Source: Candidatus Iainarchaeum sp.
Lineage (GTDB): Archaea > Iainarchaeota > Iainarchaeia > Iainarchaeales > CSSED10-239
Reading direction: 5' to 3'
DNA length: 11,458 nt
Assembly (NCBI GenBank): GCA_028693335.1
Contig: JAQUVR010000011.1
Span: 1-11,458, forward strand
Positions 10 through 11,458 of the stretch are shown here, piece after piece (within the stretch, counting starts at the first letter, position 1; every line of letters starts with the position of its first letter). Below the pieces are notes generated by a model. The model searched no databases and was not told the origin of the DNA. It saw only the letters and a list, made by a program, of their open reading frames with translations. Made by a program: the position numbers and the translations under genes.

Positions 10-936
10 TTATATTAATCCAAGCAATATTAGAAGAATTGCTTCTCTTACATATACTCCGTTTTCTGCCTGTTTAAAATATAAATTATATTTAGAATCA
101 TCTACATTTTTATCAATTTCATAAACTCTTGGTAATGGATGCATTACAAATAGATTAGGATTATTTTCATTATCTAATAATTCTTTTGTAATTGTATATT
201 TTTTCTTAAGTTTTTCAATATCTATTGGTTCTGCAATTCTTTCTAGCTGTGTTCTTGTTACATATAGTATGTCTAGATCTTTTAAATTTCCAATTGGGGT
301 ATCAAGTATTTCATATTTTATTTTTTTTGAATCTAATATTTTTAGATATTCTTTTCCAATTGTAAATTCTGGAGATGAAATGAATTTTATTATTTTTGGA
401 TTATAAAGTGAGATTGCTTCAACTAATGAATGAACTGTTCTTCCATATTTTAGATCTCCAAAAAAGCCAATACTGATATCGTCTAATTTTCCAATTTTCT
501 GTTTTATTGTAAATAAATCTAACATTGTTTGTGTTGGGTGTTGATTAGTACCATCTCCTGCATTAATTATTGGTTTATCTGTTATTTCGCTTGCAAATCT
601 GGCAGCACCTTCAATTTTTGTTCTCATTATAATTAAATCACTATATCCTGAAACTATTTTTATTGTGTCACTAAAAGTTTCTCCTTTTTTTATTGCAGTT
701 GTTTGAATATCTTCAAAACCAATTGTATTTCCACCAAGTTTTTTTGTTGCAGTCTCAAAAGACATTTTTGTTCTAGTTGATGGTTCGAAAAAGAGTGTTG
801 CTATGATTTTTCCTTTTAAAAGATCTGTATATTTATCAGGGTTTTTGTAAACCTCTTGAGAAACAGATAAAATATAGTTGATCTCTTTAGTTGAAAAATC
901 ATGAATGGATATTATGTTCTTTATTTTATGGTCCAT
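10..936 (-). CDS. pyrB: aspartate carbamoyltransferase, catalytic chain
   Basis: Minus-strand ORF with the ATCase motifs FFEPSTRTK (carbamoyl-phosphate S-T-R-T site), NQHPTQ, GDLKYGRTVHS, RTQLER and HPLPR. HPLP fits ATCase rather than the HCLP of ornithine carbamoyltransferase. Start placed at ATG 934-936 (MDHKIKN...) rather than the track's TTG at 951, because GGAGG (945-949, minus strand) lies 8 nt upstream of that ATG and the TTG overlaps it. Stop is TAA at 10-12. The last 9 nt before the window edge read ACTTGGAGA on the minus strand, an SD-like GGAGA that hints at a closely following gene (pyrI would be typical) outside the window. Confidence 0.9.
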   Translation of the reverse strand: MDHKIKNIISIHDFSTKEINYILSVSQEVYKNPDKYTDLLKGKIIATLFFEPSTRTKMSFETATKKLGGNTIGFEDIQTTAIKKGETFSDTIKIVSGYSDLIIMRTKIEGAARFASEITDKPIINAGDGTNQHPTQTMLDLFTIKQKIGKLDDISIGFFGDLKYGRTVHSLVEAISLYNPKIIKFISSPEFTIGKEYLKILDSKKIKYEILDTPIGNLKDLDILYVTRTQLERIAEPIDIEKLKKKYTITKELLDNENNPNLFVMHPLPRVYEIDKNVDDSKYNLYFKQAENGVYVREAILLILLGLI

Positions 937-944
937 TCTATTTT

Positions 945-949
945 CCTCC
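945..949 (-). promoter_or_regulatory. Shine-Dalgarno-like GGAGG for pyrB
   Basis: CCTCC on the plus strand is GGAGG on the minus strand, 8 nt upstream of ATG 936. Confidence 0.6.
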
Positions 950-987
950 AAGAAAATTTCTGTTTATTTATTTAAATTATCAAAACA

Positions 988-1072: not shown

Positions 1073-4000
1073 ATGAAAAAAATATTGATCTTGTTTTTTA
1101 TGTTATTAAATCTCTCTATAGTCTTTGGATTAAGTCCGAATTTTTTTAATAATAATAGTTATTATGATCAAGTAGTAGATCTTGGTGTGTCAGACACAAA
1201 TTTATCAGGTAATTTTTTAAGAATTAGTGTTTCTGATCAATCTCAAAATTATTTTTTAAATACCTATGATTTTTCTGAAGTTAATAGTGTTGAAGTTGTT
1301 TTTGATGTTTCTGTATCTTCTAATTTAATTGTTACTTATGAAACATTAGATCTAAATGAGTTAATACTAGAAACCTATGTTTTTCCTTTGAATCTAGAAA
1401 TAATAGATCTTGGAAATTTGTATTTGTGTGATTCTATTAATTGTTCTTTTGATGAAATTTCTAATAATTATTTTGATAATAATACAGGGGTTTATTTATT
1501 TGTTGATAATAATTTAGATGTTAATTATTCAGTAGATGTTTTTTTTAAAGAAAATTTAGAAAATTCTCTTTTATTTTCAGAAAAAGATTTATCTTTTCCA
1601 TATTTTGTTTCTGTTTCTGAATATGGGGAATATAAGTTGATATTAAATTATATTTTTGAAGATCAAATATTTAAAAAAGAAATTATTTTTTTTATAAATA
1701 ACATATTGCCAGTTTCAGAAGAATACTTAAATGAACCAAATCAAAACATTATCTTTTACGATTCAATTATTGAAGAATCAGAAGATCTAAATCAAAGCAA
1801 TGTTGTTGATAATAGCTATTCTTTGCAAAATAATGACTATGCGTCTAAAGATTCTAAAAACATAAGTTTTATTATTTTAATTTTAGCAATAATTGTTTTA
1901 ATGCTTTTTATTGTTTTTTCCAATAAAAGAAATAGACGAAAAGATAGAAAAATATCTGCTATTTTGTTTTTTTTATTTTTTTTAAGTTTATTTAATTTTG
2001 TTTATTCTGATCCTCAGATTACTATTAACCTTGAAAGAGAAAATAAAATTAATGAAATTTATAGATATTATAGAACACAAAACACCATTTCTGATGATCT
2101 ATTATTTATTTTTGAAATTAATAATGGTCAACCAGTAAATAGGATCATAGAAAATTACCAAATAATTCCATATGATACTGATGGCGTAAGAAGAACACCA
2201 ACAATTAATACCACTCTTGCTCATAGAACAGTAAATAATCAACCAATTTATTCTATTGAAAACAGATTAGACAGAGTATATTTTTTTAACACTGCAAAAA
2301 GAGGAACAATTAACAATAGAAATCAATTCTTTTCTTGTTTTAATGCTGCAGACACTTATTATAGATCTGTTGATGTTTTTGATAATGTTACAATAGCTAA
2401 TGAACAAGAAACAGTTAGAAGACTTTTTTTGCCAAGAACAGAATCTGAAGTTAAAAGAGGAATATCTACTAGAACAAATAACAACACAGAATTTTTAACA
2501 AATTGTTTTAATTTTTTAGTGCGCGAAAAAATAATTCTTCCATATGATATTTTATTATACACTAGAGTAGAACTTAGAAATATTCCAGAAAATAAAGACA
2601 CTTATCAATCAAATGAACAAATAATTTTTAATCCACCTTTTTTAAATACAAATAAACCAATTAATGTAAGAATTTCTTTTAAGAAAACACCGATTACAAT
2701 ATCTTCACGATATACTTTGCCTTTTGGTTGTGAAAATCAAGAATTGGATTATTGTTATCTTAATAGACAAGATATAGAATTAATAAAAAATCAAAGTGAT
2801 GGTGGAATTATTGCAACTCCAGAATATTTTCAAAGGAGAGCAAGATATTTTAATTTACTAAATCAATTTGATTTGGTAAAAAATTTTAGTGTAAAAAAAG
2901 TTGACGGAATAGATTTAAAAGAAGTTTTAGTTGCTGCTGCAATGAAAAGAGAAAATCTCTGTTTTTCTGAAGAGAATAAAGAATATAATGAAATAATTTT
3001 TGATGTTGCAAAAGCATATAACTTTACAGATGAACAAGCATTACAATTTTGGGCAATTGTTGCAGAAAAATCAAACTGTAATATTAATTATGATAGACCA
3101 AATGATGGGTTTTTAGGCCTTTCTCAAACTAGATTAGAAGATTATTATAAACAATATGTTGATTTAGATCCAAAAATGGCTCCACAACTAAAAGAAGAAG
3201 AAAATTTACAGTATTTAGTTTTGGGAGATTTTAGAGAAATTAACACAAAAAATATTGAAAAATATGGTAGAGATAATATAATTAGATTTGGTGGTTCTCC
3301 TGGAAAGATAAACACTATGTATTGGTATTATGAATTTCTTATTAAGGCAATTAAATCAAGTAGAGATAAGCACGGATCTTTAGTTTTATTTGCTGGTGCT
3401 GATTATTTAAAAGAAACGACAAATTTGGTTAATTTTTGTGATAATTATAATCGTGAAAATAATACTCAAAACAGTTTCTATAACTTAGACACTTTTATTT
3501 TAGATAATACAAAAAAAAATATGATTGGTGTGTTTGTTTTAGGAAATTTATTAGATCAAAAAAACATTTTAAAAACAGAAGAAATCTGTAAGAGTGTTGG
3601 TGAACCAGAATCTATAATTTTAGAACACCCTATACTTTATAATACTTTGACTGGAAATTATTGTGTAGATAATGGTTATGTTCCATCAGCAACATATCCA
3701 ATAAATAAAACAATTGCTGGTGTTACTTATAATGGGTCTGGTGCTTTACTTTACAAATGTCAAAACAACAGAATCTATAGCTGTATTCCTGGAACAACAA
3801 CAACTCAAGAAGTAGTTAGTCCCCCACAGGTTTTAAGAACAGAAATTTGTTCTGCTCAATCTAGTGTTTCTGATTTTAGGGTTAGAATTTCTAAGGAGTT
3901 TAAGATTTTAATTAATTATCTTGCAATAAAACAAAAATATCAAGCAAATAAAAACTATTTTGTGGAAAATGGTTTTTTGGATGGTCAGACAAATGACCAA

Positions 4001-4894
4001 GGCATAACTAATAAATATCAAGAATATTCTAGATTAAAACATAATTATCTTGAATTGAGAAAAGAAAATTATTTAAGAATTTTAGATACTCAAGATATTT
4101 CTTTATTAAAAAGAATTAATTCTAATTATTATTTTGCAGACACTTTAAAAAACACAAGATCATTATCATCAGCAACATCTGGGCGTTGTGCACAATTTGT
4201 AAGAGAATTTGGTGCAAATATTTTTACTTTAGATCGTTATCCTACGCCTGGTGCTTCTGCAGCCTGGACATATGACACAACACCAAGTGTAAGGCAAGGG
4301 TATAATTTAATTTGGGAATCTCCAACCGTTTGTTATAGTAAACCAGGAAACACAAGATTGTCAAGAAATACTTGTGTTGAAACGCCATCTGTTCAAAGTG
4401 AAACATTAGATTTAGATTTATTACCTGATGGTGCAATATTAGGGCTTTATGTTTGTAAACAACAACACACAAATAGTAGAAATGTAACTACTTATAATTT
4501 AGAATATACTCATGTTGGAACCTATATAGGCAAAGACCAACTAGGTAATCATTTGTTGATTCATATGGGCAATTCTAGAGCAATAGAAAAAATTAGTGAT
4601 TATACTTCATTAAGATGTGGTTCTGGATTTTATCGCCAAATATTAAGAGTTTATGTTCCAAGATCAACAGGGATAACAAGTATGGAACAATTAAGAGAAT
4701 TAAAACAGAGAAATTTATTACAACCAATTACTTGGGTAGAAAATATAGATAGATTAATTGATACCACAAACGGAGAAAATTTTGAAGCGTTTTCATACCC
4801 TGAATTAGATTCTCAAGATGATATTTATACTGAAGAAACTGAATCAGAATCTTTGGAACAAGAGAATAATGATGATTTAATTATAACAGAATAA
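1073..4894 (+). CDS. giant secreted/membrane-anchored protein: fusion of module A (surface-anchored domain) and module B (putative dual cell-wall hydrolase); hypothetical
   Basis: Uninterrupted 1278-codon ORF in the track (TTG 1058). I prefer ATG 1073 (MKKILILFFMLLNLSIVFG/LSPN, a classic signal peptide) because GGTGA at 1060-1064 lies 8 nt upstream. Stop TAA at 4892-4894 is followed directly by T6 (4895-4900). Residues 1-317 (track numbering) are paralogous to the 7697..8671 product and residues 318-1278 to the 8661..>11458 product; the shared blocks are listed in the findings. Confidence 0.88.
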   Translation: MKKILILFFMLLNLSIVFGLSPNFFNNNSYYDQVVDLGVSDTNLSGNFLRISVSDQSQNYFLNTYDFSEVNSVEVVFDVSVSSNLIVTYETLDLNELILETYVFPLNLEIIDLGNLYLCDSINCSFDEISNNYFDNNTGVYLFVDNNLDVNYSVDVFFKENLENSLLFSEKDLSFPYFVSVSEYGEYKLILNYIFEDQIFKKEIIFFINNILPVSEEYLNEPNQNIIFYDSIIEESEDLNQSNVVDNSYSLQNNDYASKDSKNISFIILILAIIVLMLFIVFSNKRNRRKDRKISAILFFLFFLSLFNFVYSDPQITINLERENKINEIYRYYRTQNTISDDLLFIFEINNGQPVNRIIENYQIIPYDTDGVRRTPTINTTLAHRTVNNQPIYSIENRLDRVYFFNTAKRGTINNRNQFFSCFNAADTYYRSVDVFDNVTIANEQETVRRLFLPRTESEVKRGISTRTNNNTEFLTNCFNFLVREKIILPYDILLYTRVELRNIPENKDTYQSNEQIIFNPPFLNTNKPINVRISFKKTPITISSRYTLPFGCENQELDYCYLNRQDIELIKNQSDGGIIATPEYFQRRARYFNLLNQFDLVKNFSVKKVDGIDLKEVLVAAAMKRENLCFSEENKEYNEIIFDVAKAYNFTDEQALQFWAIVAEKSNCNINYDRPNDGFLGLSQTRLEDYYKQYVDLDPKMAPQLKEEENLQYLVLGDFREINTKNIEKYGRDNIIRFGGSPGKINTMYWYYEFLIKAIKSSRDKHGSLVLFAGADYLKETTNLVNFCDNYNRENNTQNSFYNLDTFILDNTKKNMIGVFVLGNLLDQKNILKTEEICKSVGEPESIILEHPILYNTLTGNYCVDNGYVPSATYPINKTIAGVTYNGSGALLYKCQNNRIYSCIPGTTTTQEVVSPPQVLRTEICSAQSSVSDFRVRISKEFKILINYLAIKQKYQANKNYFVENGFLDGQTNDQGITNKYQEYSRLKHNYLELRKENYLRILDTQDISLLKRINSNYYFADTLKNTRSLSSATSGRCAQFVREFGANIFTLDRYPTPGASAAWTYDTTPSVRQGYNLIWESPTVCYSKPGNTRLSRNTCVETPSVQSETLDLDLLPDGAILGLYVCKQQHTNSRNVTTYNLEYTHVGTYIGKDQLGNHLLIHMGNSRAIEKISDYTSLRCGSGFYRQILRVYVPRSTGITSMEQLRELKQRNLLQPITWVENIDRLIDTTNGENFEAFSYPELDSQDDIYTEETESESLEQENNDDLIITE
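1862..2008 (+). other. fusion joint: TM anchor of module A, basic loop, then the former signal peptide of module B
   Basis: ISFIILILAIIVLMLFIVFS (1862-1921), NKRNRRKDRK (1922-1951), ISAILFFLFFLSLFNFVYS (1952-2008), followed by DPQ. This mirrors the split pair, where A ends WFFVVGFVVFILVIWFLSNL-KKPKQNRRIIRKEYEK and B starts MKNNKLFFLFLLIFIFTQEVYA-IPQ. Confidence 0.7.
2993..3127 (+). other. lytic transglycosylase (SLT)/lysozyme-like motif region, fused copy
   Basis: IIFDVAKAYNFTDEQALQFWAIVAEKSNCNINYDRPNDGFLGLSQ resembles the family-1 SLT pattern (A-x-x-Y-x-x-D-x-x-L-L-x-A-I-x-x-x-E-S-x-x-N-P ... G-x-x-G-L-M-Q). Candidate catalytic Glu670 is at 3065-3067. It deviates from the canon in reading E-K-S instead of E-S. 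Recognised by eye only. Confidence 0.5.
3662..3850 (+). other. 63-aa cysteine-rich cassette, fused copy (Cys869-Cys931)
   Basis: CVDNGYVPSATYPINKTIAGVTYNGSGALLYKCQNNRIYSCIPGTTTTQEVVSPPQVLRTEIC aligns with compensating single-residue gaps to the split-copy cassette at 9879-10067. Shared positions: C, D, GY, S, YP, G, G, YKC, R, C-x-P, V, L, EIC. Confidence 0.7.
4172..4666 (+). other. NlpC/P60-CHAP-like papain-fold peptidase/amidase motif set, fused copy
   Basis: SGRCAQFV (Cys1044, 4187-4189) resembles the nucleophile motif (DCSGFV in NlpC/P60, QC-x-x-fV in CHAP). LLPDGAILGLY ... EYTHVGTYIGKDQLGNHLLIHMG resembles L-x-pGDlvff ... HVGIYIG-x-g-x-x-IHa, with His1152 at 4511-4513 and His1169 at 4562-4564. 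The Cys-to-His spacing of 108 residues is longer than typical and contains a Cys-bearing insert. Confidence 0.5.
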
Positions 4895-4914
4895 TTTTTT
4901 AATAATGATCATTT

Positions 4915-5067
4915 ATGACTAAAGGAACAAAAATGTTAATCTCTGGAATAACTAAAAAAAATATTAAGCCTGCAAAAAAAATAGACAAAAAAACTTTTAA
5001 TGATATAAAAGCACTTTTAGAATCTGCCAGAGAATCTTTTAATAAAAATCAAAATAAAAGAAATTGA
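4915..5067 (+). CDS. possible small lysine-rich protein (50 aa, or 44 aa from ATG 4933); hypothetical
   Basis: Not in the ORF track (too short). Translation is MTKGTKMLISGITKKNIKPAKKIDKKTFNDIKALLESARESFNKNQNKRN, with stop TGA at 5065-5067. The in-frame ATG at 4933 has AAGGA (4922-4926) 6 nt upstream. It fills most of the gap between convergent genes. In A-rich DNA an open Lys-rich frame of this length can arise by chance. Confidence 0.25.
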   Translation: MTKGTKMLISGITKKNIKPAKKIDKKTFNDIKALLESARESFNKNQNKRN

Positions 5068-5088
5068 GAAAAAATTAATTTTTCTCAG
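5065..5088. terminator. perfect 24-bp palindrome between convergent genes (candidate bidirectional terminator)
   Basis: tgagaaaaaatt|aattttttctca is exactly self-complementary. It contains the TGA of the small plus-strand ORF (5065-5067) and the TAA of RuBisCO on the minus strand (5075-5077). It presents a T6 run to transcription from either direction. The stem is AT-rich and therefore weak. Confidence 0.35.
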
Positions 5089-6538
5089 TATTAAGTGCTC
5101 TTTCTATTTCAGAACATTTTTTCTTACTAAAAAAGTCTATTGCTTCTTTTAGTTCAACATGGTCTTTTGCATACTCTTCTATAGAAATACCTTTTTTATA
5201 TGCCTCACATGCTTGAACTAAAGCTCTGGCACCCTCTTGTGTTCCTTTTGGATGAGCATGACAACCAGCGCCCATAGTGGTTATAAAGTCTACTGAGCCC
5301 ATAACATCTATAAATGGTTTTAGTAATGTAGGATTTAGTCCACCAGAAATTATAGGTGCACATTTTTTTACTCCTCTCCAAGAATCGTCTTTTAAGATAA
5401 CGTGGCCAACAGAATCTTCTTGAACTAATTTTACAGAATCTTTGTCATCTTCTGGTATCTTTGACCAAGATTGATCAAAGAAATGACCAGTTGCAGAAAA
5501 ATCTAAAATTCCATCAGCAGCAGTGACATCTTCTTTAGGGGTTCCGTCCATTTTTCCAACACCAGCAGTTCCAGTGTGTATTCCTGATGCTCCTGCAAGT
5601 CTTGCAAATTTAGATAGAACTAAAACAGAAAAACCAAATGGATTTTCTGGTCTTGTAAATGCTCCGTGTGCTGCTCTATGGAAATGTATAAATACATTTG
5701 GATATCTTCTTCTTAATGTTTGAACAGCCATCCATCCAGCAGTAATTCCATCAATTAAGAAAGCATATGATCCTTCTTCAAATCCAGCATTTATGATCAT
5801 TTCACATCTATTGATCATGGTGTCAAAATCTGATGCTGAAACATTAAATGAATGAACTTTTTTTTGTCCTGTTTCTTTTACTGCTTTATCCATAGCTTCT
5901 TTTACATGTTTAACCATTTTTTCATAAGGGCAGAAATCTTGATCTGCTTGTGGTTCATCATTCTTAACAAAATCTCCACCACCAACCCAAAAATCATAGG
6001 CAACTTCTGCATATTCTGCACTTGTTAGTCCCATCTTTGGTTTTACTATTGTACCTAATATTGGTCTATCATAAACACCAAGATATTTTCTCATATCATC
6101 AAGAGTGTAACTAGGTCCATCAAATTGTTCTAACATTGCTGGAGAGAACCAAACATCTAATAGTTTTAGGGCTGACACTTCTTTCATTCCTAAAACATTT
6201 CCAACAACATAGGTTAAAATATTTTGAACATTTCCAATCCTGTCAAACAATCTCCATGGAAAAGCTATCCAAACAAGATTTTTTTCTAAATCTAGTTTGT
6301 ATACTAAAGCATTCATTTCTCTTGAAAATGCAGTTTCAGTTTTTACCTTAAAATTAGTTCCTGTTGATGACTCTGCTGCAACTTCTGCTGCTGCTTGTAA
6401 GATGTTTAATGATCCTCCTGGTAAAAGATGGAATATACATAACATATATTCTCCATTTTTAACATTTGGAATCTCAAAATTAACATAAGCTTTTTGTTTA
6501 TCATTTAATGATTCATATAATTCTTTTTCTGTTAACAT
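5075..6538 (-). CDS. rbcL: ribulose-1,5-bisphosphate carboxylase/oxygenase large subunit, long form II/III-like type
   Basis: 487-aa ORF with the full RuBisCO active-site set (spinach equivalents in brackets). AAESSTGT has Glu56 (E60) and YVVGNV has Asn114 (N123). TIVKPKMG has K166/K168 (K175/K177). VKNDE has K192/D194/E195 (carbamylated K201, D203, E204), with the K192 codon at 5963-5965. HFHRAAH has H287/R288/H291 (H294/R295/H298). GIHTGT has H321 (H327) and GKM has K329 (K334). ISGGL has S398-G399-G400 (S379-G381), and TMGAG follows. GGAGGAG (6544-6550, minus strand) lies 5 nt upstream of ATG 6538. Confidence 0.93.
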   Translation of the reverse strand: MLTEKELYESLNDKQKAYVNFEIPNVKNGEYMLCIFHLLPGGSLNILQAAAEVAAESSTGTNFKVKTETAFSREMNALVYKLDLEKNLVWIAFPWRLFDRIGNVQNILTYVVGNVLGMKEVSALKLLDVWFSPAMLEQFDGPSYTLDDMRKYLGVYDRPILGTIVKPKMGLTSAEYAEVAYDFWVGGGDFVKNDEPQADQDFCPYEKMVKHVKEAMDKAVKETGQKKVHSFNVSASDFDTMINRCEMIINAGFEEGSYAFLIDGITAGWMAVQTLRRRYPNVFIHFHRAAHGAFTRPENPFGFSVLVLSKFARLAGASGIHTGTAGVGKMDGTPKEDVTAADGILDFSATGHFFDQSWSKIPEDDKDSVKLVQEDSVGHVILKDDSWRGVKKCAPIISGGLNPTLLKPFIDVMGSVDFITTMGAGCHAHPKGTQEGARALVQACEAYKKGISIEEYAKDHVELKEAIDFFSKKKCSEIERALNTEKN

Positions 6539-6543
6539 TTTTT

Positions 6544-6550
6544 CTCCTCC
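6544..6550 (-). promoter_or_regulatory. Shine-Dalgarno GGAGGAG for rbcL
   Basis: ctcctcc on the plus strand, 5 nt from the start codon. Confidence 0.65.
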
Positions 6551-6581
6551 ATAAAATAATATAGATAAGAAGTAAGAAGTC

Positions 6582-6590
6582 TTTATATAT
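6582..6590 (-). promoter_or_regulatory. TATA-like element (ATATATAAA on minus strand) upstream of rbcL
   Basis: tttatatat at 6582-6590, about 44 nt upstream of ATG 6538. This would leave a leader of roughly 20 nt carrying the SD. Same 9-mer as upstream of pyrB. Weak support given the composition. Confidence 0.25.
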
Positions 6591-6745
6591 TTTTGTTTTT
6601 AATTAAAAAAAACAGATCTGATTTTTAAACATTTCCATCTTATAGTTTTATAGTAAAATAAATTTACTAATTTTATTGCTGTTAAAGGTATTTTTTAACC
6701 GCAAACAACAGATTTTTGCCTTTTTTTAAGAAATCTGTGAATGTA

Positions 6746-6755
6746 AGGAGAGGAG
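6746..6755 (+). promoter_or_regulatory. Shine-Dalgarno-like AGGAGAGGAG
   Basis: Purine-rich double GGAG, 11 nt upstream of ATG 6767. Confidence 0.5.
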
Positions 6756-6766
6756 TGTTTTTAGGT

Positions 6767-7093
6767 ATGAACAAAAAAACAATATTGGTAATTATAGGTA
6801 TAACTATAATTTTAAGTACTTTTGTTTTATTTGCAAAAGTTAATGCAAAAGAAAATGGATCTTTTGCTATATCACAAAGTGATTATTTTTCAAAAAACGG
6901 TTTTACAATTAAACCCATTGAGCCAAGTCAGCCAACTTTTTTAGATATGGTTAGATGTACTTGTAATGGAGAGGCTTGTGGTAGTTCTTTTGAAAGTCAA
7001 CCAAACGTACAGGCTGGAAATTTGATTGTTTATTGTGCACAATTATGTTCTTGTAGATCTCATGTTGGCTTTACTTATGAAACTGAAGAATAG
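6767..7093 (+). CDS. small secreted cysteine-rich protein (108 aa); hypothetical
   Basis: The track ORF starts at TTG 6716. I prefer ATG 6767 (MNKKTILVIIGITIILSTFVLFAKVNA/KENG, a signal peptide) because of the upstream AGGAGAGGAG. GTG 6755 is an alternative. The mature part has six Cys clustered in the C-terminal half (RCTCNGEAC ... YCAQLCSC). Stop is TAG at 7091-7093. Confidence 0.7.
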   Translation: MNKKTILVIIGITIILSTFVLFAKVNAKENGSFAISQSDYFSKNGFTIKPIEPSQPTFLDMVRCTCNGEACGSSFESQPNVQAGNLIVYCAQLCSCRSHVGFTYETEE

Positions 7094-7108
7094 ATTTTTT
7101 TATTCTTC
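7085..7108 (+). terminator. hairpin plus T-runs after the small secreted protein gene
   Basis: gaagaata (7085-7092) pairs perfectly with tattcttc (7101-7108). The stem can extend by G-U and A-T pairs to leave a tttt loop. It overlaps the stop codon and is followed by ttgacttttt (T5 at 7114-7118). Confidence 0.4.
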
Positions 7109-7119
7109 TTGACTTTTTC

Positions 7120-7134
7120 TTTATAAATATTTTG
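7120..7134 (+). promoter_or_regulatory. TATA-box-like promoter motif tttataaatattttg (copy 1)
   Basis: An exact 15-mer that also occurs at 7666-7680. It starts 31 nt upstream of ATG 7151. The intervening 16 nt are pure A/T with no SD, which fits a leaderless or near-leaderless transcript. Confidence 0.45.
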
Positions 7135-7150
7135 ATTATTTATTTTATAT

Positions 7151-7651
7151 ATGAATGATCAACTAAAAATAAAATTTGTGTTTGTTGGTAATAGACCAAT
7201 TAAGAAACCAGAATTATTGAATAATGTTTTGTGTGTCTATCTAAATAGTGGCAGATCTTTTTTATTAGCCAGAGAGAATAGACCAGTTTTTGAATATTTA
7301 TTAAATACAAAAAATAAAAAAGATCAATTACAAATTGTGGAATTACTAAAAAACAACTCTTTTTATGAATTTGTTGGATCTGTTCCAAAAATAAAAGAAT
7401 ATTGTAAATTGTTTGATTCGTTTAATGGTTTTGAAACAATAGATCATTTAGAAAAAGTTCTAAAAAATTTTGAAAAATGGACAAATGGAAATACTTTACA
7501 AAGACAAAAAGCAATTGATGGTTTTTCTAAGGAAATTAAACAATCTATATTAAAAGAATATTTTGCAAATTTAAATGTTAGACAACCAAACCCAGTAAAA
7601 CCAACACAAAAAAAAAGAACAAATGTAACCACAAAGTCAAAAGTTAAATGA
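7151..7651 (+). CDS. hypothetical cytosolic protein (166 aa) with Lys/Thr-rich basic tail
   Basis: ATG-initiated ORF with no signal peptide or TM segment. The C-terminus is QPNPVKPTQKKRTNVTTKSKVK. No family recognised. Stop is TGA at 7649-7651. Confidence 0.7.
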   Translation: MNDQLKIKFVFVGNRPIKKPELLNNVLCVYLNSGRSFLLARENRPVFEYLLNTKNKKDQLQIVELLKNNSFYEFVGSVPKIKEYCKLFDSFNGFETIDHLEKVLKNFEKWTNGNTLQRQKAIDGFSKEIKQSILKEYFANLNVRQPNPVKPTQKKRTNVTTKSKVK

Positions 7652-7665
7652 TTGGCTAAGATAGT

Positions 7666-7680
7666 TTATAAATATTTTGT
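7666..7680 (+). promoter_or_regulatory. TATA-box-like promoter motif tttataaatattttg (copy 2)
   Basis: Identical 15-mer to 7120-7134. It starts 31 nt upstream of GTG 7697, the same spacing as copy 1 to ATG 7151. No SD lies in between. Confidence 0.45.
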
Positions 7681-7696
7681 TTAGTTATAATTATTA

Positions 7697-8671
7697 GTGA
7701 TAGACATGAATAATTTACACAAACTAATTTTTTTAATAAGCTTTTTTTTATTGTTATCTAACATCTATGCATATAATTTAGAAAATGGAAAAACATATTA
7801 TTATGGCGCCATATTAGATATTGGGATATCAGATCTTAATTCTGTTTCTAATATAGATGTAACACAAATAAATTATGTTAATATTAGTGTAAGTAGTGAT
7901 TATGAAACATATATTAGTTATGATTATAATTTAGAAGAAATATCAGAAATGCCAATCCAATTTGATAAAGATATTGCATCAAAATTAAGAATTAGTTATA
8001 TCTTTTTTGATAATGTTGATAACATAATTAAAGAAGAAGAAATAAATATTAATCTTGTTGAAAATTTAGACACTAGTAATTTTTATTTATGTAGTGATAA
8101 AGATTGTCAAAAAGATCTGTTACCAAAAAATTATGATTTTTGGATTGATGATGCTATTTTTGTTTCTGCTGATAAGATTGATTATGAGAAATATAATTAT
8201 AATATTTTTATACAAATAGATCAAGAAAATAATAATACTTTGTTATTATCAGAAGAAAACATTGTTTTTCCATATGAAATTTTTAATGATGTTATTGTTG
8301 GACATAATTATTATAAAATAATAATTGAAATGATTAGTAAAGATAATGAGATTTATTTACAAGAAATCTATTTTAGATTATCTAATTTAAAAGAAATAGA
8401 AAATAGGCAACTGGTTTCAGAAATAACAACTAACAATGAGACAACAACAAACATCTTACAGGAAAATAATAATTTAGAAACTGCTTCTCAAAAAGAGATA
8501 GATACTCAAAAAGCAGAAGAAATTGAATTAAATAAACAAGACACAAAATTAGATAATAAATGGTTTTTTGTGGTTGGATTTGTGGTTTTTATTTTAGTAA
8601 TTTGGTTTTTAAGTAATTTAAAAAAACCTAAACAAAACAGACGAATAATTAGGAAAGAATATGAAAAATAA
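7697..8671 (+). CDS. module A paralog: signal peptide, extracellular domain, polar stalk, C-terminal TM anchor; hypothetical
   Basis: The start is ambiguous between GTG 7697 (favoured by promoter-motif spacing) and ATG 7706 (MNNLHKLIFLISFFLLLSNIYA/YNL). It shares blocks with the N-terminal 317 aa of the fused protein: YYYGAILDIGISDLN / YYDQVVDLGVSDTN, NFYLCSDKDC / NLYLCDSINC, LLLSEENIVFPY / LLFSEKDLSFPY, and YKIIIE / YKLILN. The TM segment WFFVVGFVVFILVIWFLSNL (8561-8620) is followed by the basic tail KKPKQNRRIIRKEYEK. Confidence 0.85.
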   Translation: MIDMNNLHKLIFLISFFLLLSNIYAYNLENGKTYYYGAILDIGISDLNSVSNIDVTQINYVNISVSSDYETYISYDYNLEEISEMPIQFDKDIASKLRISYIFFDNVDNIIKEEEININLVENLDTSNFYLCSDKDCQKDLLPKNYDFWIDDAIFVSADKIDYEKYNYNIFIQIDQENNNTLLLSEENIVFPYEIFNDVIVGHNYYKIIIEMISKDNEIYLQEIYFRLSNLKEIENRQLVSEITTNNETTTNILQENNNLETASQKEIDTQKAEEIELNKQDTKLDNKWFFVVGFVVFILVIWFLSNLKKPKQNRRIIRKEYEK

Positions 8672-11458
8672 TAAACTATTTTTTTTATTTTTATTAATCT
8701 TTATATTTACACAAGAAGTATATGCAATTCCACAAATACCAACAGACTTAGTAAATTATAATACAGTTTATGATATTTTTAATTTTTATTATCCAAAATT
8801 TGAAACCCCATTACAAATTCCAATAAATTATACTGTTTTAGATGATGGGACATTAGCAACAAGGAATATAGGCTATAAAGACATAATTATTGGTAATTTT
8901 ATGCAAACGCCAATAGTAATTAATTCAAAATCAGAAGATCTAAATGTTACTGTAAGTTTAGAAAAAGTTTATTTTTTATCTAACAGATCTAATTTTTCAG
9001 TAGAAAATAATTGTTCTCGTGCAATTTTAAGATACTATACTGAATTAAATAATCTTTTTTTATCACCATACAATCCAAGGAACAAAGATGTTGTAATTGA
9101 TAGAATTTTTGTTCCAAGAACAAAAGAAAGAATTATTTCTTTTTTATCATCAAATGGAGTTAATAATCCTGAAGATTGTCTATTTAATCTAGAAACAAAT
9201 AGAAATCTTTATTCTTTTCCAGTTTTATTTAAATTAGAATCAAAACTAATTGGCACAAAAGAAAGTTTAGGCAAAAACTTTTCTTTTCAAGTTAAGTTTA
9301 ATCCTGATTTTTTAAGTAATATAAAACCAATTCAATATAATGTATCTTTTAGAAAAGAACCAATAAGAGTGAGTTCAACATATAGTTTTCCACGAGGTTG
9401 TGAAAATAATCCTATTGTTGGTGCCTGTTATATTACTAATCAAGATATTATAAATTTTAATGAAACTAGTATTACTTCTCCAGAAAGTGTAGCAATAAAT
9501 AATGAGATTTATAGTTTATTAAATAATTTTACTGCAGTTTCTTCATTTAAGAACAATATGTTTGAAAATATTAATACTCAAAACTTGTTAGTAGATTTAT
9601 CCTTAAAAAGAGAACAATTTTGTTTTAGAGAAGAAAATGAGGATTATACAAAAGTTATTTTTGATGTTGCAAAAGCATATGATCTGTCATTAGAAGAAGC
9701 TTTTCAATTGTGGGCATTAATTTCTGAAAGATCTAATTGTAATTATAATTTGGATCCAACCTTATATGGTTTTGCTCAAGTTGATCTAAGGGATAGAGCT
9801 GATGGTAAATTAATAGATATTGAAGAAATTACAAATACCCAAAATAATCAAACCCCAGTAGATTCTAGTTGCTCTATGTGTGGTGATGGTTATTTTTTAT
9901 CTTCTAATTACCCAACAAGATCAGCAGCTGTTGGTGGCCAAAATCTTTTAAAAGGACAAGTTTGTTATAAATGTGTCTCAGACACAAGAGTTGAGAGATG
10001 TAATCCAAATAATGGAATTGTTGGTGGTACTGTTAATATGCCACTTGCTTTAAAAAATGAAATTTGTCCAAATTTTGGTAATTTACCAGCAAATCAAACA
10101 AATATTTCTGATCAAATATCAAATACCATTCCATTACAATTAGAAGAGGAAGAGCAGTTTCAATATCTGGCTATTGGTGATTTTAATAATATAAATAATT
10201 ATATTAGAGATAATTTATATAATGGAGATACTTATGCCTATTATAAATATGGAATAGATAATAAAATTACAAATTCTGAAACCTATTTTAATTTTTTAAT
10301 TAATGCCATAAAATATAATTCTGATGAATATGGGTCAACTATATTATTTGCATCAGACTATATTAAAGCAATGAATTTTTTAGTAAAAAATAGTAGAGAA
10401 AAATCAGATAATGCTTTTGTTTTTGAAGACAATATTTTAAGCACGCCATATAGTTTAAATTCTGTTTATGTCTTATCTAATATTTTAAATTCAGAAAATA
10501 CTGAAAAAATATATGAAATTGGAAGAAATCCAAATATATTTGAATCAACAACTTTTTTTGTAAAGGATGGTAATAATATAAAAACAACTAGAGATATAAG
10601 AGTTTTAATTAATTATCTTGCAATTAAGAGAAAATATTTAAGAGATCCAGAATATTTTTTAAGATTTAATTTAAGAAGATTTAATGCTAATACTCCTGAT
10701 TTGACTTTAAAGTTAGAAAATTATAATAGATTAAATCACAAATACTGGGACGCAAAAAAAAATATTTATTTACAAACACTTGAAACTAATAATCAAAAAT
10801 TAATGTTAAAAAAAAATATTGAATATTATAGTTTTGATAGATTATTATCAATACCAGCGAGACCAAATTATCCAGTGTCATATATTTTAGATTTTGGTAA
10901 AGAAGTTTATTTAGATGGTCAAGATAATTACATTGGTTTTGGGTTGCTTGCTTGGAATTTTGATACTAAAAGAGAAGCAATAGATAATTACAATTTAATT
11001 TGGGAAGCTTCAAATATTTGTAATAATAAAATTGTTTGTGATCAATCTGTTCCAACAACCAAAGATTGTTGTTATGAGAATAGATCTTTACAAGATGGGC
11101 GAACTTACTATCCTTATTTAGATGTACTTATTGATGGTGCGATACTTGGAATCTATAATCCAACAAGTAAATATAATGATGAAAATAGAGAATACACTCA
11201 TTTGGCTATGTATATTGGAAAAACATCAGCGGGTATTCCTTTGATTATTGAAAGTACTGTTAATGGTCAAAAGATTTCTATTTTAAATAGAGAAATAAGG
11301 GATAGAGTAAAAAGAATATATGTTCCAAAATCAACAAATATTCAAAATATTAGATCAATTATTCAAAATCCATCAAGATATCCATCAACTTATGTAAAAT
11401 TAACAAATGTTCAATTACAAGAGATTCAAAGACAAGAAAGAGAAAGAATAGGTGATAC
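8661..11458 (+). CDS. module B paralog (3' end outside window): secreted protein with SLT-like motif, Cys-rich cassette and degenerate NlpC/P60-like region; hypothetical
   Basis: Absent from the ORF track because no stop occurs before the window edge. I translated it by hand: at least 932 codons from ATG 8661 (MKNNKLFFLFLLIFIFTQEVYA/IPQIPTDL...). The ATG overlaps the upstream gene by 11 nt (ATGAAAAATAA), and AGGA at 8651-8654 lies 6 nt upstream. It is collinear with residues 318-1278 of the fused protein. Shared blocks include RIFVPRTKE / RLFLPRTES, FNPDFLSNIKPI / FNPPFLNTNKPI, PRGCEN / PFGCEN, IFDVAKAY, SNCN, QYLAIGDF / QYLVLGDF, LINYLAIK, YNLIWE, DGAILG, EYTH and RIYVPKST / RVYVPRST. By comparison with the fused copy, only a few tens of codons are missing. 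Confidence 0.88.
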   Translation, partial: MKNNKLFFLFLLIFIFTQEVYAIPQIPTDLVNYNTVYDIFNFYYPKFETPLQIPINYTVLDDGTLATRNIGYKDIIIGNFMQTPIVINSKSEDLNVTVSLEKVYFLSNRSNFSVENNCSRAILRYYTELNNLFLSPYNPRNKDVVIDRIFVPRTKERIISFLSSNGVNNPEDCLFNLETNRNLYSFPVLFKLESKLIGTKESLGKNFSFQVKFNPDFLSNIKPIQYNVSFRKEPIRVSSTYSFPRGCENNPIVGACYITNQDIINFNETSITSPESVAINNEIYSLLNNFTAVSSFKNNMFENINTQNLLVDLSLKREQFCFREENEDYTKVIFDVAKAYDLSLEEAFQLWALISERSNCNYNLDPTLYGFAQVDLRDRADGKLIDIEEITNTQNNQTPVDSSCSMCGDGYFLSSNYPTRSAAVGGQNLLKGQVCYKCVSDTRVERCNPNNGIVGGTVNMPLALKNEICPNFGNLPANQTNISDQISNTIPLQLEEEEQFQYLAIGDFNNINNYIRDNLYNGDTYAYYKYGIDNKITNSETYFNFLINAIKYNSDEYGSTILFASDYIKAMNFLVKNSREKSDNAFVFEDNILSTPYSLNSVYVLSNILNSENTEKIYEIGRNPNIFESTTFFVKDGNNIKTTRDIRVLINYLAIKRKYLRDPEYFLRFNLRRFNANTPDLTLKLENYNRLNHKYWDAKKNIYLQTLETNNQKLMLKKNIEYYSFDRLLSIPARPNYPVSYILDFGKEVYLDGQDNYIGFGLLAWNFDTKREAIDNYNLIWEASNICNNKIVCDQSVPTTKDCCYENRSLQDGRTYYPYLDVLIDGAILGIYNPTSKYNDENREYTHLAMYIGKTSAGIPLIIESTVNGQKISILNREIRDRVKRIYVPKSTNIQNIRSIIQNPSRYPSTYVKLTNVQLQEIQRQERERIGD
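9654..9779 (+). other. SLT/lysozyme-like motif region, split copy
   Basis: VIFDVAKAYDLSLEEAFQLWALISERSNCNYNLDPTLYGFAQ. The candidate Glu356 (9726-9728) is conserved with Glu670 of the fused copy. GFAQ replaces GLSQ. Confidence 0.45.
9879..10067 (+). other. 63-aa cysteine-rich cassette, split copy (Cys407-Cys469)
   Basis: CGDGYFLSSNYPTRSAAVGGQNLLKGQVCYKCVSDTRVERCNPNNGIVGGTVNMPLALKNEIC is homologous to 3662-3850. Here it lies upstream of the QYL-x-x-GDF block rather than downstream of it. Confidence 0.7.
10854..11333 (+). other. NlpC/P60-like region lacking the nucleophile Cys, split copy
   Basis: PVSYILDFG aligns without gaps to CAQFVREFG, putting Pro738 (10872-10874) opposite Cys1044. LIDGAILGIY ... 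EYTHLAMYIGKTSAGIPLIIES keeps His847 (11199-11201). Glu864 (11250-11252) replaces the second His at the identical 17-residue spacing. Confidence 0.45.

Follow-up and report, generated by a model that had tools for sequence, protein, structure and literature searches.

A candidate membrane-anchored hydrolase cassette with an NlpC/P60-like domain, encoded as a fused and a split paralogue in a DPANN archaeon

The stretch of DNA analysed here (the window; positions 1 to 11,458 of contig JAQUVR010000011.1, from a metagenome-assembled genome of Candidatus Iainarchaeum sp., 11,458 nucleotides) encodes two copies of a pair of surface modules, which we name A, the membrane-anchor protein, and B, the large exported protein. 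One copy, referred to as fused, carries A+B in a single open reading frame (ORF), and the other is split into two genes. We propose with moderate confidence that the pair is a membrane-anchored lytic enzyme cassette of this DPANN archaeon, in which A is the anchor and B an exported hydrolase of the NlpC/P60 type. B would be a Sec-exported multidomain enzyme built from an N-terminal domain, a helical middle, a divergent NlpC/P60 domain, and often a further C-terminal domain of catalytic type. A would hold B on the archaeal surface through the N-terminal domain of B, and B would cut peptide bonds in a cell wall, the likeliest substrate being the peptidoglycan stem peptide of a bacterial host or neighbor. 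The genes concerned are the following.

1073..4894, forward strand: fused A+B gene, 1273 amino acids (aa), ATG at 1073 with an alternative TTG at 1058; MDD3244700.1, "hypothetical protein" at NCBI.
7697..8671, forward strand: split module A gene, an ORF of 324 aa; MDD3244705.1, "hypothetical protein".
8661..8671, forward strand: overlap of the A stop and the B start, 11 nucleotides (nt), ATGAAAAATAA, read from the sequence.
8661..11458, forward strand: split module B gene, of whose 1148 codons the first 932 lie in the window, the ORF continuing past its end; MDD3244706.1, partial, "hypothetical protein".

The collinearity of the fused ORF with A followed by B, claimed in the initial annotation, is borne out by pairwise BLASTP of the translations. 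The fused protein aligns with split A over 225 aa (E=2e-16, 28% identity) and with split B in four ordered segments (E=1e-39, 1e-30, 9e-16, and 8e-6; 30-35% identity). The conserved motifs listed in that annotation were all found in both copies when read from the translations. For module A these are YY..V.DLGVSD.N, N[LF]YLC....C, and LL.SE..[LI].FPY, and for module B R.F.PRT, FNP.FL...KPI, GCEN, IFDVAKAY, SNCN, QYL..GDF, and LINYLAIK.KY, followed towards the C-terminus by YNLIWE, DGAILG.Y, EYTH, and R.YVP.ST. The complete split B protein of 1148 aa is found on L005, a 15,230-bp contig from a near-identical population that aligns with the window along its full length at 98.75% nucleotide identity and continues past the window end.

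Module B had been considered unrecognisable; its four C-terminal blocks can now be assigned to a papain-like peptidase domain, a divergent one of the NlpC/P60 type. We searched 1.84 billion representative proteins exhaustively with HMMER, using a profile built from 20 members of the family, and obtained among the weak matches small secreted proteins of 180-320 aa that carry the C-terminal conserved blocks of B and share the pattern N-C-[AS]-x-[YF]-[VA]-R ... AW ... PG-x-I-[LV]-G-x-Y-N-P-x-S ... Y-T-H-[VT]-A-x-Y-[IV]-G-K. In profile-profile comparisons with hhalign, using E. coli K-12 sequences as references, the internal domain combined with these small proteins matched MepS/MepH/NlpC/YafL with a probability of 88% (E=2.9e-6, score 42.2, 99 columns). 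The reversed reference gave 0.3% (E=0.17, score 14.5) and 20 column-shuffled references gave scores of 8.8-18.5. The internal domains of module B alone reached 44% (E=2e-4, score 31.9), and the added C-terminal domain present in some family members, which served as a positive control, 98.5% (E=4e-15, score 94.1). In the alignment with MepS, the Cys of GRC-AQFV falls on the catalytic Cys, the His of EYTH-VG on the catalytic His, and the His of LLIH-M on the third residue of the triad; a Cys-rich insertion of about 45 residues lies between the Cys helix and the beta-sheet. The two copies of the domain in the window are the following.

4160..4672, forward strand: divergent NlpC/P60-like domain of the fused copy, aa ~1030-1200 (hhalign, motif table).
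10848..11360, forward strand: degenerate internal NlpC/P60-like domain of the split copy, aa ~730-900 (BLASTP, alignment, motif table).

The fused copy has Cys/His/His in the canonical order, namely Cys1039 (4187..4189), His1147 (4511..4513), and His1164 (4562..4564). The internal domain of the split copy does not retain the triad: Pro738 (10872..10874) stands in place of the Cys, His847 (11199..11201) is kept, and the third residue is Glu864. These comparisons lead us to regard the final ~200 aa of the shared core as a probable divergent NlpC/P60 domain. Across the members, the only recurring Pfam family is Peptidase_C92 (4 of 21), which we take to group with NlpC/P60 among the papain-like peptidases; NLPC_P60 appears once, and all these matches lie below the Pfam threshold. 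Among P0040-P0054 are small secreted proteins of 116-320 aa, one of them with a Tat signal, that bear the divergent NlpC/P60-like domain, none at Pfam threshold, and P0044 (658 aa) combines such a domain with an "AESGC...GIGQI" region.

The distribution of the internal Cys was tabulated for 21 of 22 protein clusters (the truncated P0016 lacks the region), clusters that are related to each other and do not represent independent events. The Cys is present in 12 clusters that have no extra C-terminal domain, including the fused copy of the window, and in a single cluster (P0011) that has a canonical NlpC/P60 domain. It is replaced by Pro in five clusters with a canonical NlpC/P60 domain and in three with a second copy of the middle "ESGC" region, and in no cluster devoid of an extra domain; all eight clusters with the replacement (8/8) therefore carry an additional C-terminal domain. 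The Cys-to-Pro change is found in both clades of the family, the fused (P0033) and the split. This pattern is as would be expected if the Cys were catalytic and could be lost only when another catalytic module is present.

Such a module is found in P0006, the 98%-identical orthologue of split B, where PF00877 is detected at aa 967-1100 with 29.3 bits against a gathering cut-off of 23. Its added domain has an intact triad, in GLDCVG, FGHAAIY, and YIHAP, and this canonical NlpC/P60 end also matches PHROG 329, "minor tail protein", with E=1.6e-12. Placed from P0006, the canonical domain of the split copy lies about 100 nt past the window end. In the cassette that we propose, the fused copy would keep an active-looking internal triad, and in the split copy catalysis would have passed to the canonical NlpC/P60 domain beyond the window. 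As a separate observation, the C-terminal ~270 aa of P0008, P0012, and P0031 are a second, divergent copy of the middle region of B (seen in L010 at 4053..7739), with the motif "IFxxAK...EETAQLW...AAESGC...GDGxGQV", and in P0008 and P0031 the internal His is changed to Gln (EYTQ).

The nature of the substrate has to be weighed at this point. An enzyme acting elsewhere than on bacterial peptidoglycan, either on the envelope of the archaeon itself or of an archaeal host, or on lipids as an acyltransferase or phospholipase used for lipid scavenging, seems to us quite unlikely. Known DPANN hosts are mostly archaea and many DPANN archaea lack lipid synthesis, which would suit it. Taken alone, the module B sequences fit NlpC/P60 and C92 about equally well, and the C92 protein YiiX of E. 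coli is annotated as a "putative lipid-binding hydrolase"; however, the top-scoring references are peptidoglycan endopeptidases and the order Cys then His is canonical and non-permuted. Some NlpC/P60 relatives (the LRAT/H-RAS-like suppressor group) are indeed acyltransferases or phospholipases and no peptidoglycan-binding domain was found with Pfam, but the domain attached at the C-terminus is a standard PF00877 with the phage tail protein match given above, and the literature on related DPANN archaea favors an attack on peptidoglycan (PMC8204110, PMC9723730).

The surface location suggested in the initial annotation is supported by the predicted topology: both modules have signal peptides and are predicted to be exported, and A has a C-terminal membrane anchor. 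Split A begins with a signal peptide (aa 1-25), followed by two Ig/FN3-like domains (aa ~36-230); a linker that is acidic and disordered then leads to a transmembrane (TM) anchor (aa ~289-307; 8561..8617, forward strand) and a basic tail. From this layout, A is predicted to be a type-I, anchor-like membrane protein. Contrary to the initial view that module A is unrecognisable, its ectodomain, which spans ~200 aa with two invariant Cys, is modeled by AlphaFold2 for split A as two beta-sandwiches with predicted local distance difference test (pLDDT) values of 75-90. Foldseek relates this model to tandem FN3/Ig proteins (E~1e-4), among them FN3 domains of the phage lambda and T5 tail tips, RbmA, repeats of an ice-binding adhesin, and cadherin. 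The modeled ectodomain is a generic stalk or adhesion fold of tandem Ig/FN3-like beta-sandwiches. Module B has an N-terminal signal peptide and no anchor of its own. In the fused copy, the corresponding elements follow each other within one ORF.

1073..1144, forward strand: signal peptide, aa 1-24 (hydrophobicity scan, alignment).
1133..1717, forward strand: module A ectodomain, aa ~21-215 (BLASTP to split A, E=2e-16; fold from the split A model).
1862..1921, forward strand: TM helix, aa 264-283, the former C-terminal anchor of A (hydrophobicity, alignment).
1922..1951, forward strand: basic loop NKRNRRKDRK, aa 284-293, the fusion junction, presumably on the cytoplasmic side.
1952..2008, forward strand: second hydrophobic segment, aa 294-312, the former signal peptide of B, with a signal-peptidase-like V-Y-S before D313.

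The hydrophobic windows of the fused protein (aa 1-24, 260-287, and 293-312) form a pattern retained in all fused homologues: each has the TM helix, a 10-residue basic loop, and then the former B signal peptide. The residue at position -1 of this internal signal peptide is always small, with V-Y-S here and IFA, VFA, or IFS in the other fused homologues. In the fused copy, the anchor of A and the signal peptide of B would form a two-helix hairpin that places both ectodomains outside the cell, and signal peptidase may cleave after Ser312, regenerating two chains.

The association of A with B was assessed across the family, which is tiny. The exhaustive search gave 28 matches at E<=1e-3 among the 1.84 billion representatives, and at 50% identity the full-length clusters number seven, five split and two fused; a word-index protein search had also returned few homologues, and the exhaustive search upholds the small family size. 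In the genome collection there are three family loci (one on the same contig as L001), all from archaeal metagenome-assembled genomes. The proposed survey of related sequences shows that both architectures recur, the fused one in a clade of its own and the split one in six loci. The A gene lies directly 5' of the B gene in 6 of 6 separate split loci with upstream sequence present, and the two overlap by 4-14 nt in five of them. The overlap is 11 nt in the window and L005, 4 nt in L007 (5896..12693; A, B of 868 aa, and B' of 1072 aa), L008, and L011, and 14 nt in L013 (A and P0035); in L010 (3110..11235; A, B of 1228 aa, and B' of 1152 aa) a gap of 4 nt separates A from B. L007 and L010, both archaeal contigs, have one A gene followed by two tandem B genes, the second of which has a canonical NlpC/P60 end.

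P0035 (L013, 1..2002) and P0037, of 464 and 493 aa, consist of the N-terminal domain of B joined straight to a canonical NlpC/P60 domain. The ORF located 5' of P0035 is an A homologue (E=6e-15). Because A partners in L013 only with that domain plus NlpC/P60, the N-terminal domain of B is the constant companion of A and, we infer, its partner. It is a recognised sign of joint function when proteins that are separate in some genomes are fused in others (a Rosetta-stone fusion), and here the components occur both fused and separate, with the separate genes staying adjacent. The argument of the initial annotation that the fusion shows A and B to be linked therefore stands, strengthened by the A-then-B order in all six split loci and the usual overlap. 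Its further implication of a physical unit is weaker: since the TM helix of A and the signal peptide of B persist as a hairpin, the fusion need not make one rigid polypeptide.

A non-enzymatic surface structure would also account for a stalk encoded next to a large exported protein. In the two-component S-layer of Sulfolobales, SlaB is a small stalk (beta-sandwich domains and a C-terminal TM helix) beside the far larger, anchorless SlaA. A is likewise a small beta-sandwich stalk with a linker and a C-terminal TM helix, encoded beside a much larger B that has no anchor and is fairly divergent between genomes. B could then be a canopy or adhesin, with the Cys-His motif as a relic. Two thirds of B are without enzymatic signature and the Cys is lost in several members; yet the Cys is retained wherever no other C-terminal domain is present, and in the internal domain His147 hardly varies. 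Repeatedly, a canonical NlpC/P60 domain whose Cys/His/His is intact has been attached, and the minimal members, reduced to the N-terminal domain and NlpC/P60, fit an enzyme better than a lattice. No sequence similarity to SlaB/SlaA was detected, nor any to S-layer families in Pfam or NCBIfam, B has peptidase-type domains, and the anchor gene comes first here. We therefore consider a purely structural role unlikely.

The hydrolase reading leaves much of B to be described. Its first two parts in the fused copy are the following.

2009..2752, forward strand: N-terminal alpha/beta domain, aa ~313-560, of no known family (model, alignments).
2870..3952, forward strand: middle region, aa ~600-960, mostly helical and conserved, with the motif AE[KR]SNCN, whose Glu is invariant, the block G[LF].Q, and a Cys-rich insert that only fused proteins have (alignment).

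Split B starts with its signal peptide (aa 1-22) and N-terminal domain (aa 23-255), and its middle region, too, contains a Cys-rich insert. The N-terminal domain is the only part of B that, apart from NlpC/P60, recurs in the minimal proteins P0035 and P0037. The AlphaFold2 model of module B, obtained with a 20-sequence alignment, has a mean pLDDT of 55, with values of ~80 for the N-terminal domain, ~70 for the C-terminal part (about 60-83 in the NlpC/P60-like region), and below 50 for the middle. Cys-rich inserts are observed in the middle region at paralogue-specific positions, in split B at aa ~395-480 (9840..10100; CSMCG...CYKC...RC...C) and in the fused copy at aa ~857-930 (3640..3860; YCVDNG...LYKC...YSC...C); they may be disulfide knots or metal-binding sites.

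By eye, the middle region motif AE[KR]SNCN...G[FL].Q and its counterpart AESGC...GIGQI in distant relatives resemble the catalytic motifs of lytic transglycosylases. An SLT/GH23 domain (PF01464) is nevertheless not supported: hhalign against E. coli Slt70/EmtA/MltC/MltD/MltF gave 1.2% (E=0.043) over 29 columns, the Glu of B is one residue off relative to the "ES" of the relatives, and Pfam and PDB searches gave no SLT match, including for the distant relatives P0044 and P0050.

A bolder version of the hydrolase reading can be drawn from these parts, that of a lineage-specific dock-and-payload apparatus to breach a host envelope. The Ig-like stalk would be A, the N-terminal domain of B would serve for docking, and the swappable payloads would be the divergent NlpC/P60 domain, the canonical NlpC/P60 domain, and the duplicated middle domain. 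The ~400-aa middle would be a new lytic or envelope-binding fold, and the fused copy would be self-contained and processed at its internal signal peptide. We regard this elaboration as possible but doubtful.

Several points weigh against the anchored hydrolase that we favor. The assignment of the internal domain relies in part on transitive homology through the small secreted proteins, because B alone reaches only the 44% given above, and this domain has no Pfam match at threshold and no PDB sequence match. More broadly, searches of Pfam, NCBIfam, PHROGs, and PDB sequences found no match in the part of B that lies within the window. Neither module yielded a usable match in Pfam, NCBIfam, or PHROGs, nor did B or its individual domains among PDB sequences, except for the canonical NlpC/P60 domain outside the window. 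Foldseek with the poor B model, run against the PDB and BFVD, returned nothing at E<0.1 and no papain-like match. The N-terminal domain and the middle region, together about 650 aa of B, are without an assigned fold, and no recognised cell-wall-binding domain was found in B with Pfam. Binding of A to B and cleavage by B are deduced only from the order of the genes and from signals in the sequences. Peptidoglycan should be absent from the archaeon itself, which has no known host.

Concerning the relationship between the two copies, the fused proteins (P0001, P0004, P0033) and the split proteins fall into two distinct clades of a neighbor-joining tree, with ~30% identity between the clades, 44-58% inside the fused clade, and 38-54% inside the split clade. 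The initial annotation was right to describe them as paralogues: at ~30% identity and in separate clades, the copies of the window are old ones. The data fit one single fusion (or fission) event. The 11-nt A/B overlap is real, and a fusion probably arose through loss of the A stop codon within such an overlap, for which the alteration of a single base in a split pair would suffice.

The fused proteins (P0001-P0005 and P0033) form six clusters at 90% identity and two at 50%, share 44-98% identity, and come from independent NCBI, JGI, ENA, and Logan assemblies; their recurrence in these assemblies and their own clade rule out the fused form as an assembly artefact. That the fused/split difference itself reflects a sequencing or assembly frameshift instead of biology could be suspected from the A/B junction, which falls within A/T-rich homopolymer sequence, a kind of region prone to indels. 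However, the two copies in the window, at just ~30% identity, are different genes, the fused architecture is seen repeatedly across that range of identity, and the split architecture is seen in six separate loci, so that a frameshift is effectively refuted already.

The remaining genes of the window, which is strongly A+T-rich (21-34% G+C) and in which an RNA scan found no tRNA or Rfam family, are the following.

10..951, reverse strand: pyrB, at the window start.
5075..6538, reverse strand: RuBisCO gene, form II type (best NCBIfam model NF010002, 633 bits), between the fused and split copies.
6716..7093 and 7151..7651, forward strand: two small genes without known family, ORFs between RuBisCO and split A.

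The RuBisCO is of the kind named form II/III in DPANN archaea and shares 93% identity with its orthologue in L001. On L005 (2491..2943), pyrI comes next after pyrB, and the pyrB/pyrI surroundings confirm a housekeeping, not mobile, neighborhood. The small genes at 6716..7651 encode a Cys-rich transmembrane protein of 125 aa and a 166-aa protein with a basic tail, and both are retained in a related genome (L001, 15484..20294) at 65% and 51% identity. In that genome (L001-L004), the split A/B pair after RuBisCO is absent; the slot between the two small genes is occupied by an unrelated DUF2341 protein of 481 aa, together with a surface protein of 832 aa. The position next to RuBisCO appears to be a variable slot for surface proteins.

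This setting also bears on a viral or mobile-element origin, in which the cassette would be a remnant such as a tail-associated lysin with Ig-like decoration domains. The PHROG 329 match of the canonical NlpC/P60 end of P0006 and the resemblance of A to FN3 domains of phage tail tips point that way, but FN3/Ig folds are generic, there is no PHROG match for the fused protein or A, and Foldseek against BFVD found no viral structure match. Together with housekeeping neighbors (pyrB/pyrI, RuBisCO, and a DHH phosphoesterase) in conserved order, this makes such an origin very improbable.

The fast evolution that the initial annotation expected of surface machinery is only moderate. Between this genome and that of P0004, RuBisCO is 93% identical, the DHH protein 71%, four hypothetical proteins 51-70%, and the fused A+B protein 54%. 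Fused A+B is thus among the fastest-changing proteins of this two-genome comparison, yet it is not an outlier relative to the other hypothetical proteins. Gene order near the fused copy is conserved between these genomes, whose fused proteins are 54% identical.

Little is understood of the ways in which DPANN archaea attach to their hosts and feed on them, and genomic handles on the question are few; candidate surface lytic enzymes are among them. The cassette offers a concrete and testable model of how an enzyme that lacks a known wall-binding domain is retained at the cell surface. Its features of interest are the anchor encoded beside the hydrolase, the catalytic domains swapped or handed over among members, and the presence of a fused and a split paralogue in one genome. 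The analysis also assigns a superfamily to proteins that NCBI calls "hypothetical protein" and identifies an unannotated group of small secreted NlpC/P60-like proteins.

Compared to other Rosetta-stone fusions, A and B similarly occur both fused and as adjacent genes, with conserved order and an overlap in 5 of the 6 split loci. Here, however, both forms coexist in one genome as 30%-identical paralogues, and the fusion retains an internal signal peptide and TM helix, so that it may be processed to two chains. With the NlpC/P60 endopeptidases (PF00877; MepS/Spr, MepH, NlpC, YafL), module B shares secretion, the canonical triad order aligned residue for residue with MepS, and, on the orthologue of the split copy, a canonical PF00877 domain above the Pfam threshold. 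It differs in that its internal domain is beyond the reach of the Pfam hidden Markov model, contains the ~45-residue Cys-rich insertion, and ends a ~950-aa protein of otherwise unassigned domains, and in being archaeal and paired with a dedicated membrane-anchor gene.

Among DPANN archaea, some with small genomes and form II/III RuBisCO have been reported to possess large extracellular lytic enzymes (PMC8204110), including the fam00969 proteins, which are very large, secreted, and contain a murein lytic transglycosylase domain. GH23 genes were described in DPANN archaea by Vigneron et al. 2022 (PMC9723730), and the walls of bacterial hosts are the proposed target in both studies. B is also large, secreted, and putatively wall-degrading, in a small-genome DPANN archaeon with form II/III RuBisCO, but those proteins have an SLT/GH23 domain, which was not found in B by Pfam, NCBIfam, or hhalign, and the recognisable catalytic domain of B is a peptidase, not a glycosidase. 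The likeness to fam00969 is therefore one of role and not of family. Neither of these two studies describes the A/B cassette or its fused form, and we found no literature linking NlpC/P60 to DPANN archaea with form II/III RuBisCO.

Archaeal peptidoglycan hydrolases have been shown experimentally to kill bacteria (Strock et al. 2025, PMC12352652), in a study whose survey criterion was a known catalytic domain together with a known cell-wall-binding domain. Both the type of enzyme proposed here and archaeal wall hydrolases are thus already known; the A/B architecture is unannotated and very rare, and the advance is incremental. Like those hydrolases, the A/B family is archaeal, secreted, modular, and putatively lytic, has shuffled catalytic domains, and belongs to the DPANN-type lineages in which they are prominent. 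Unlike them, it carries no known binding domain and apparently uses a separate, membrane-anchored partner instead.

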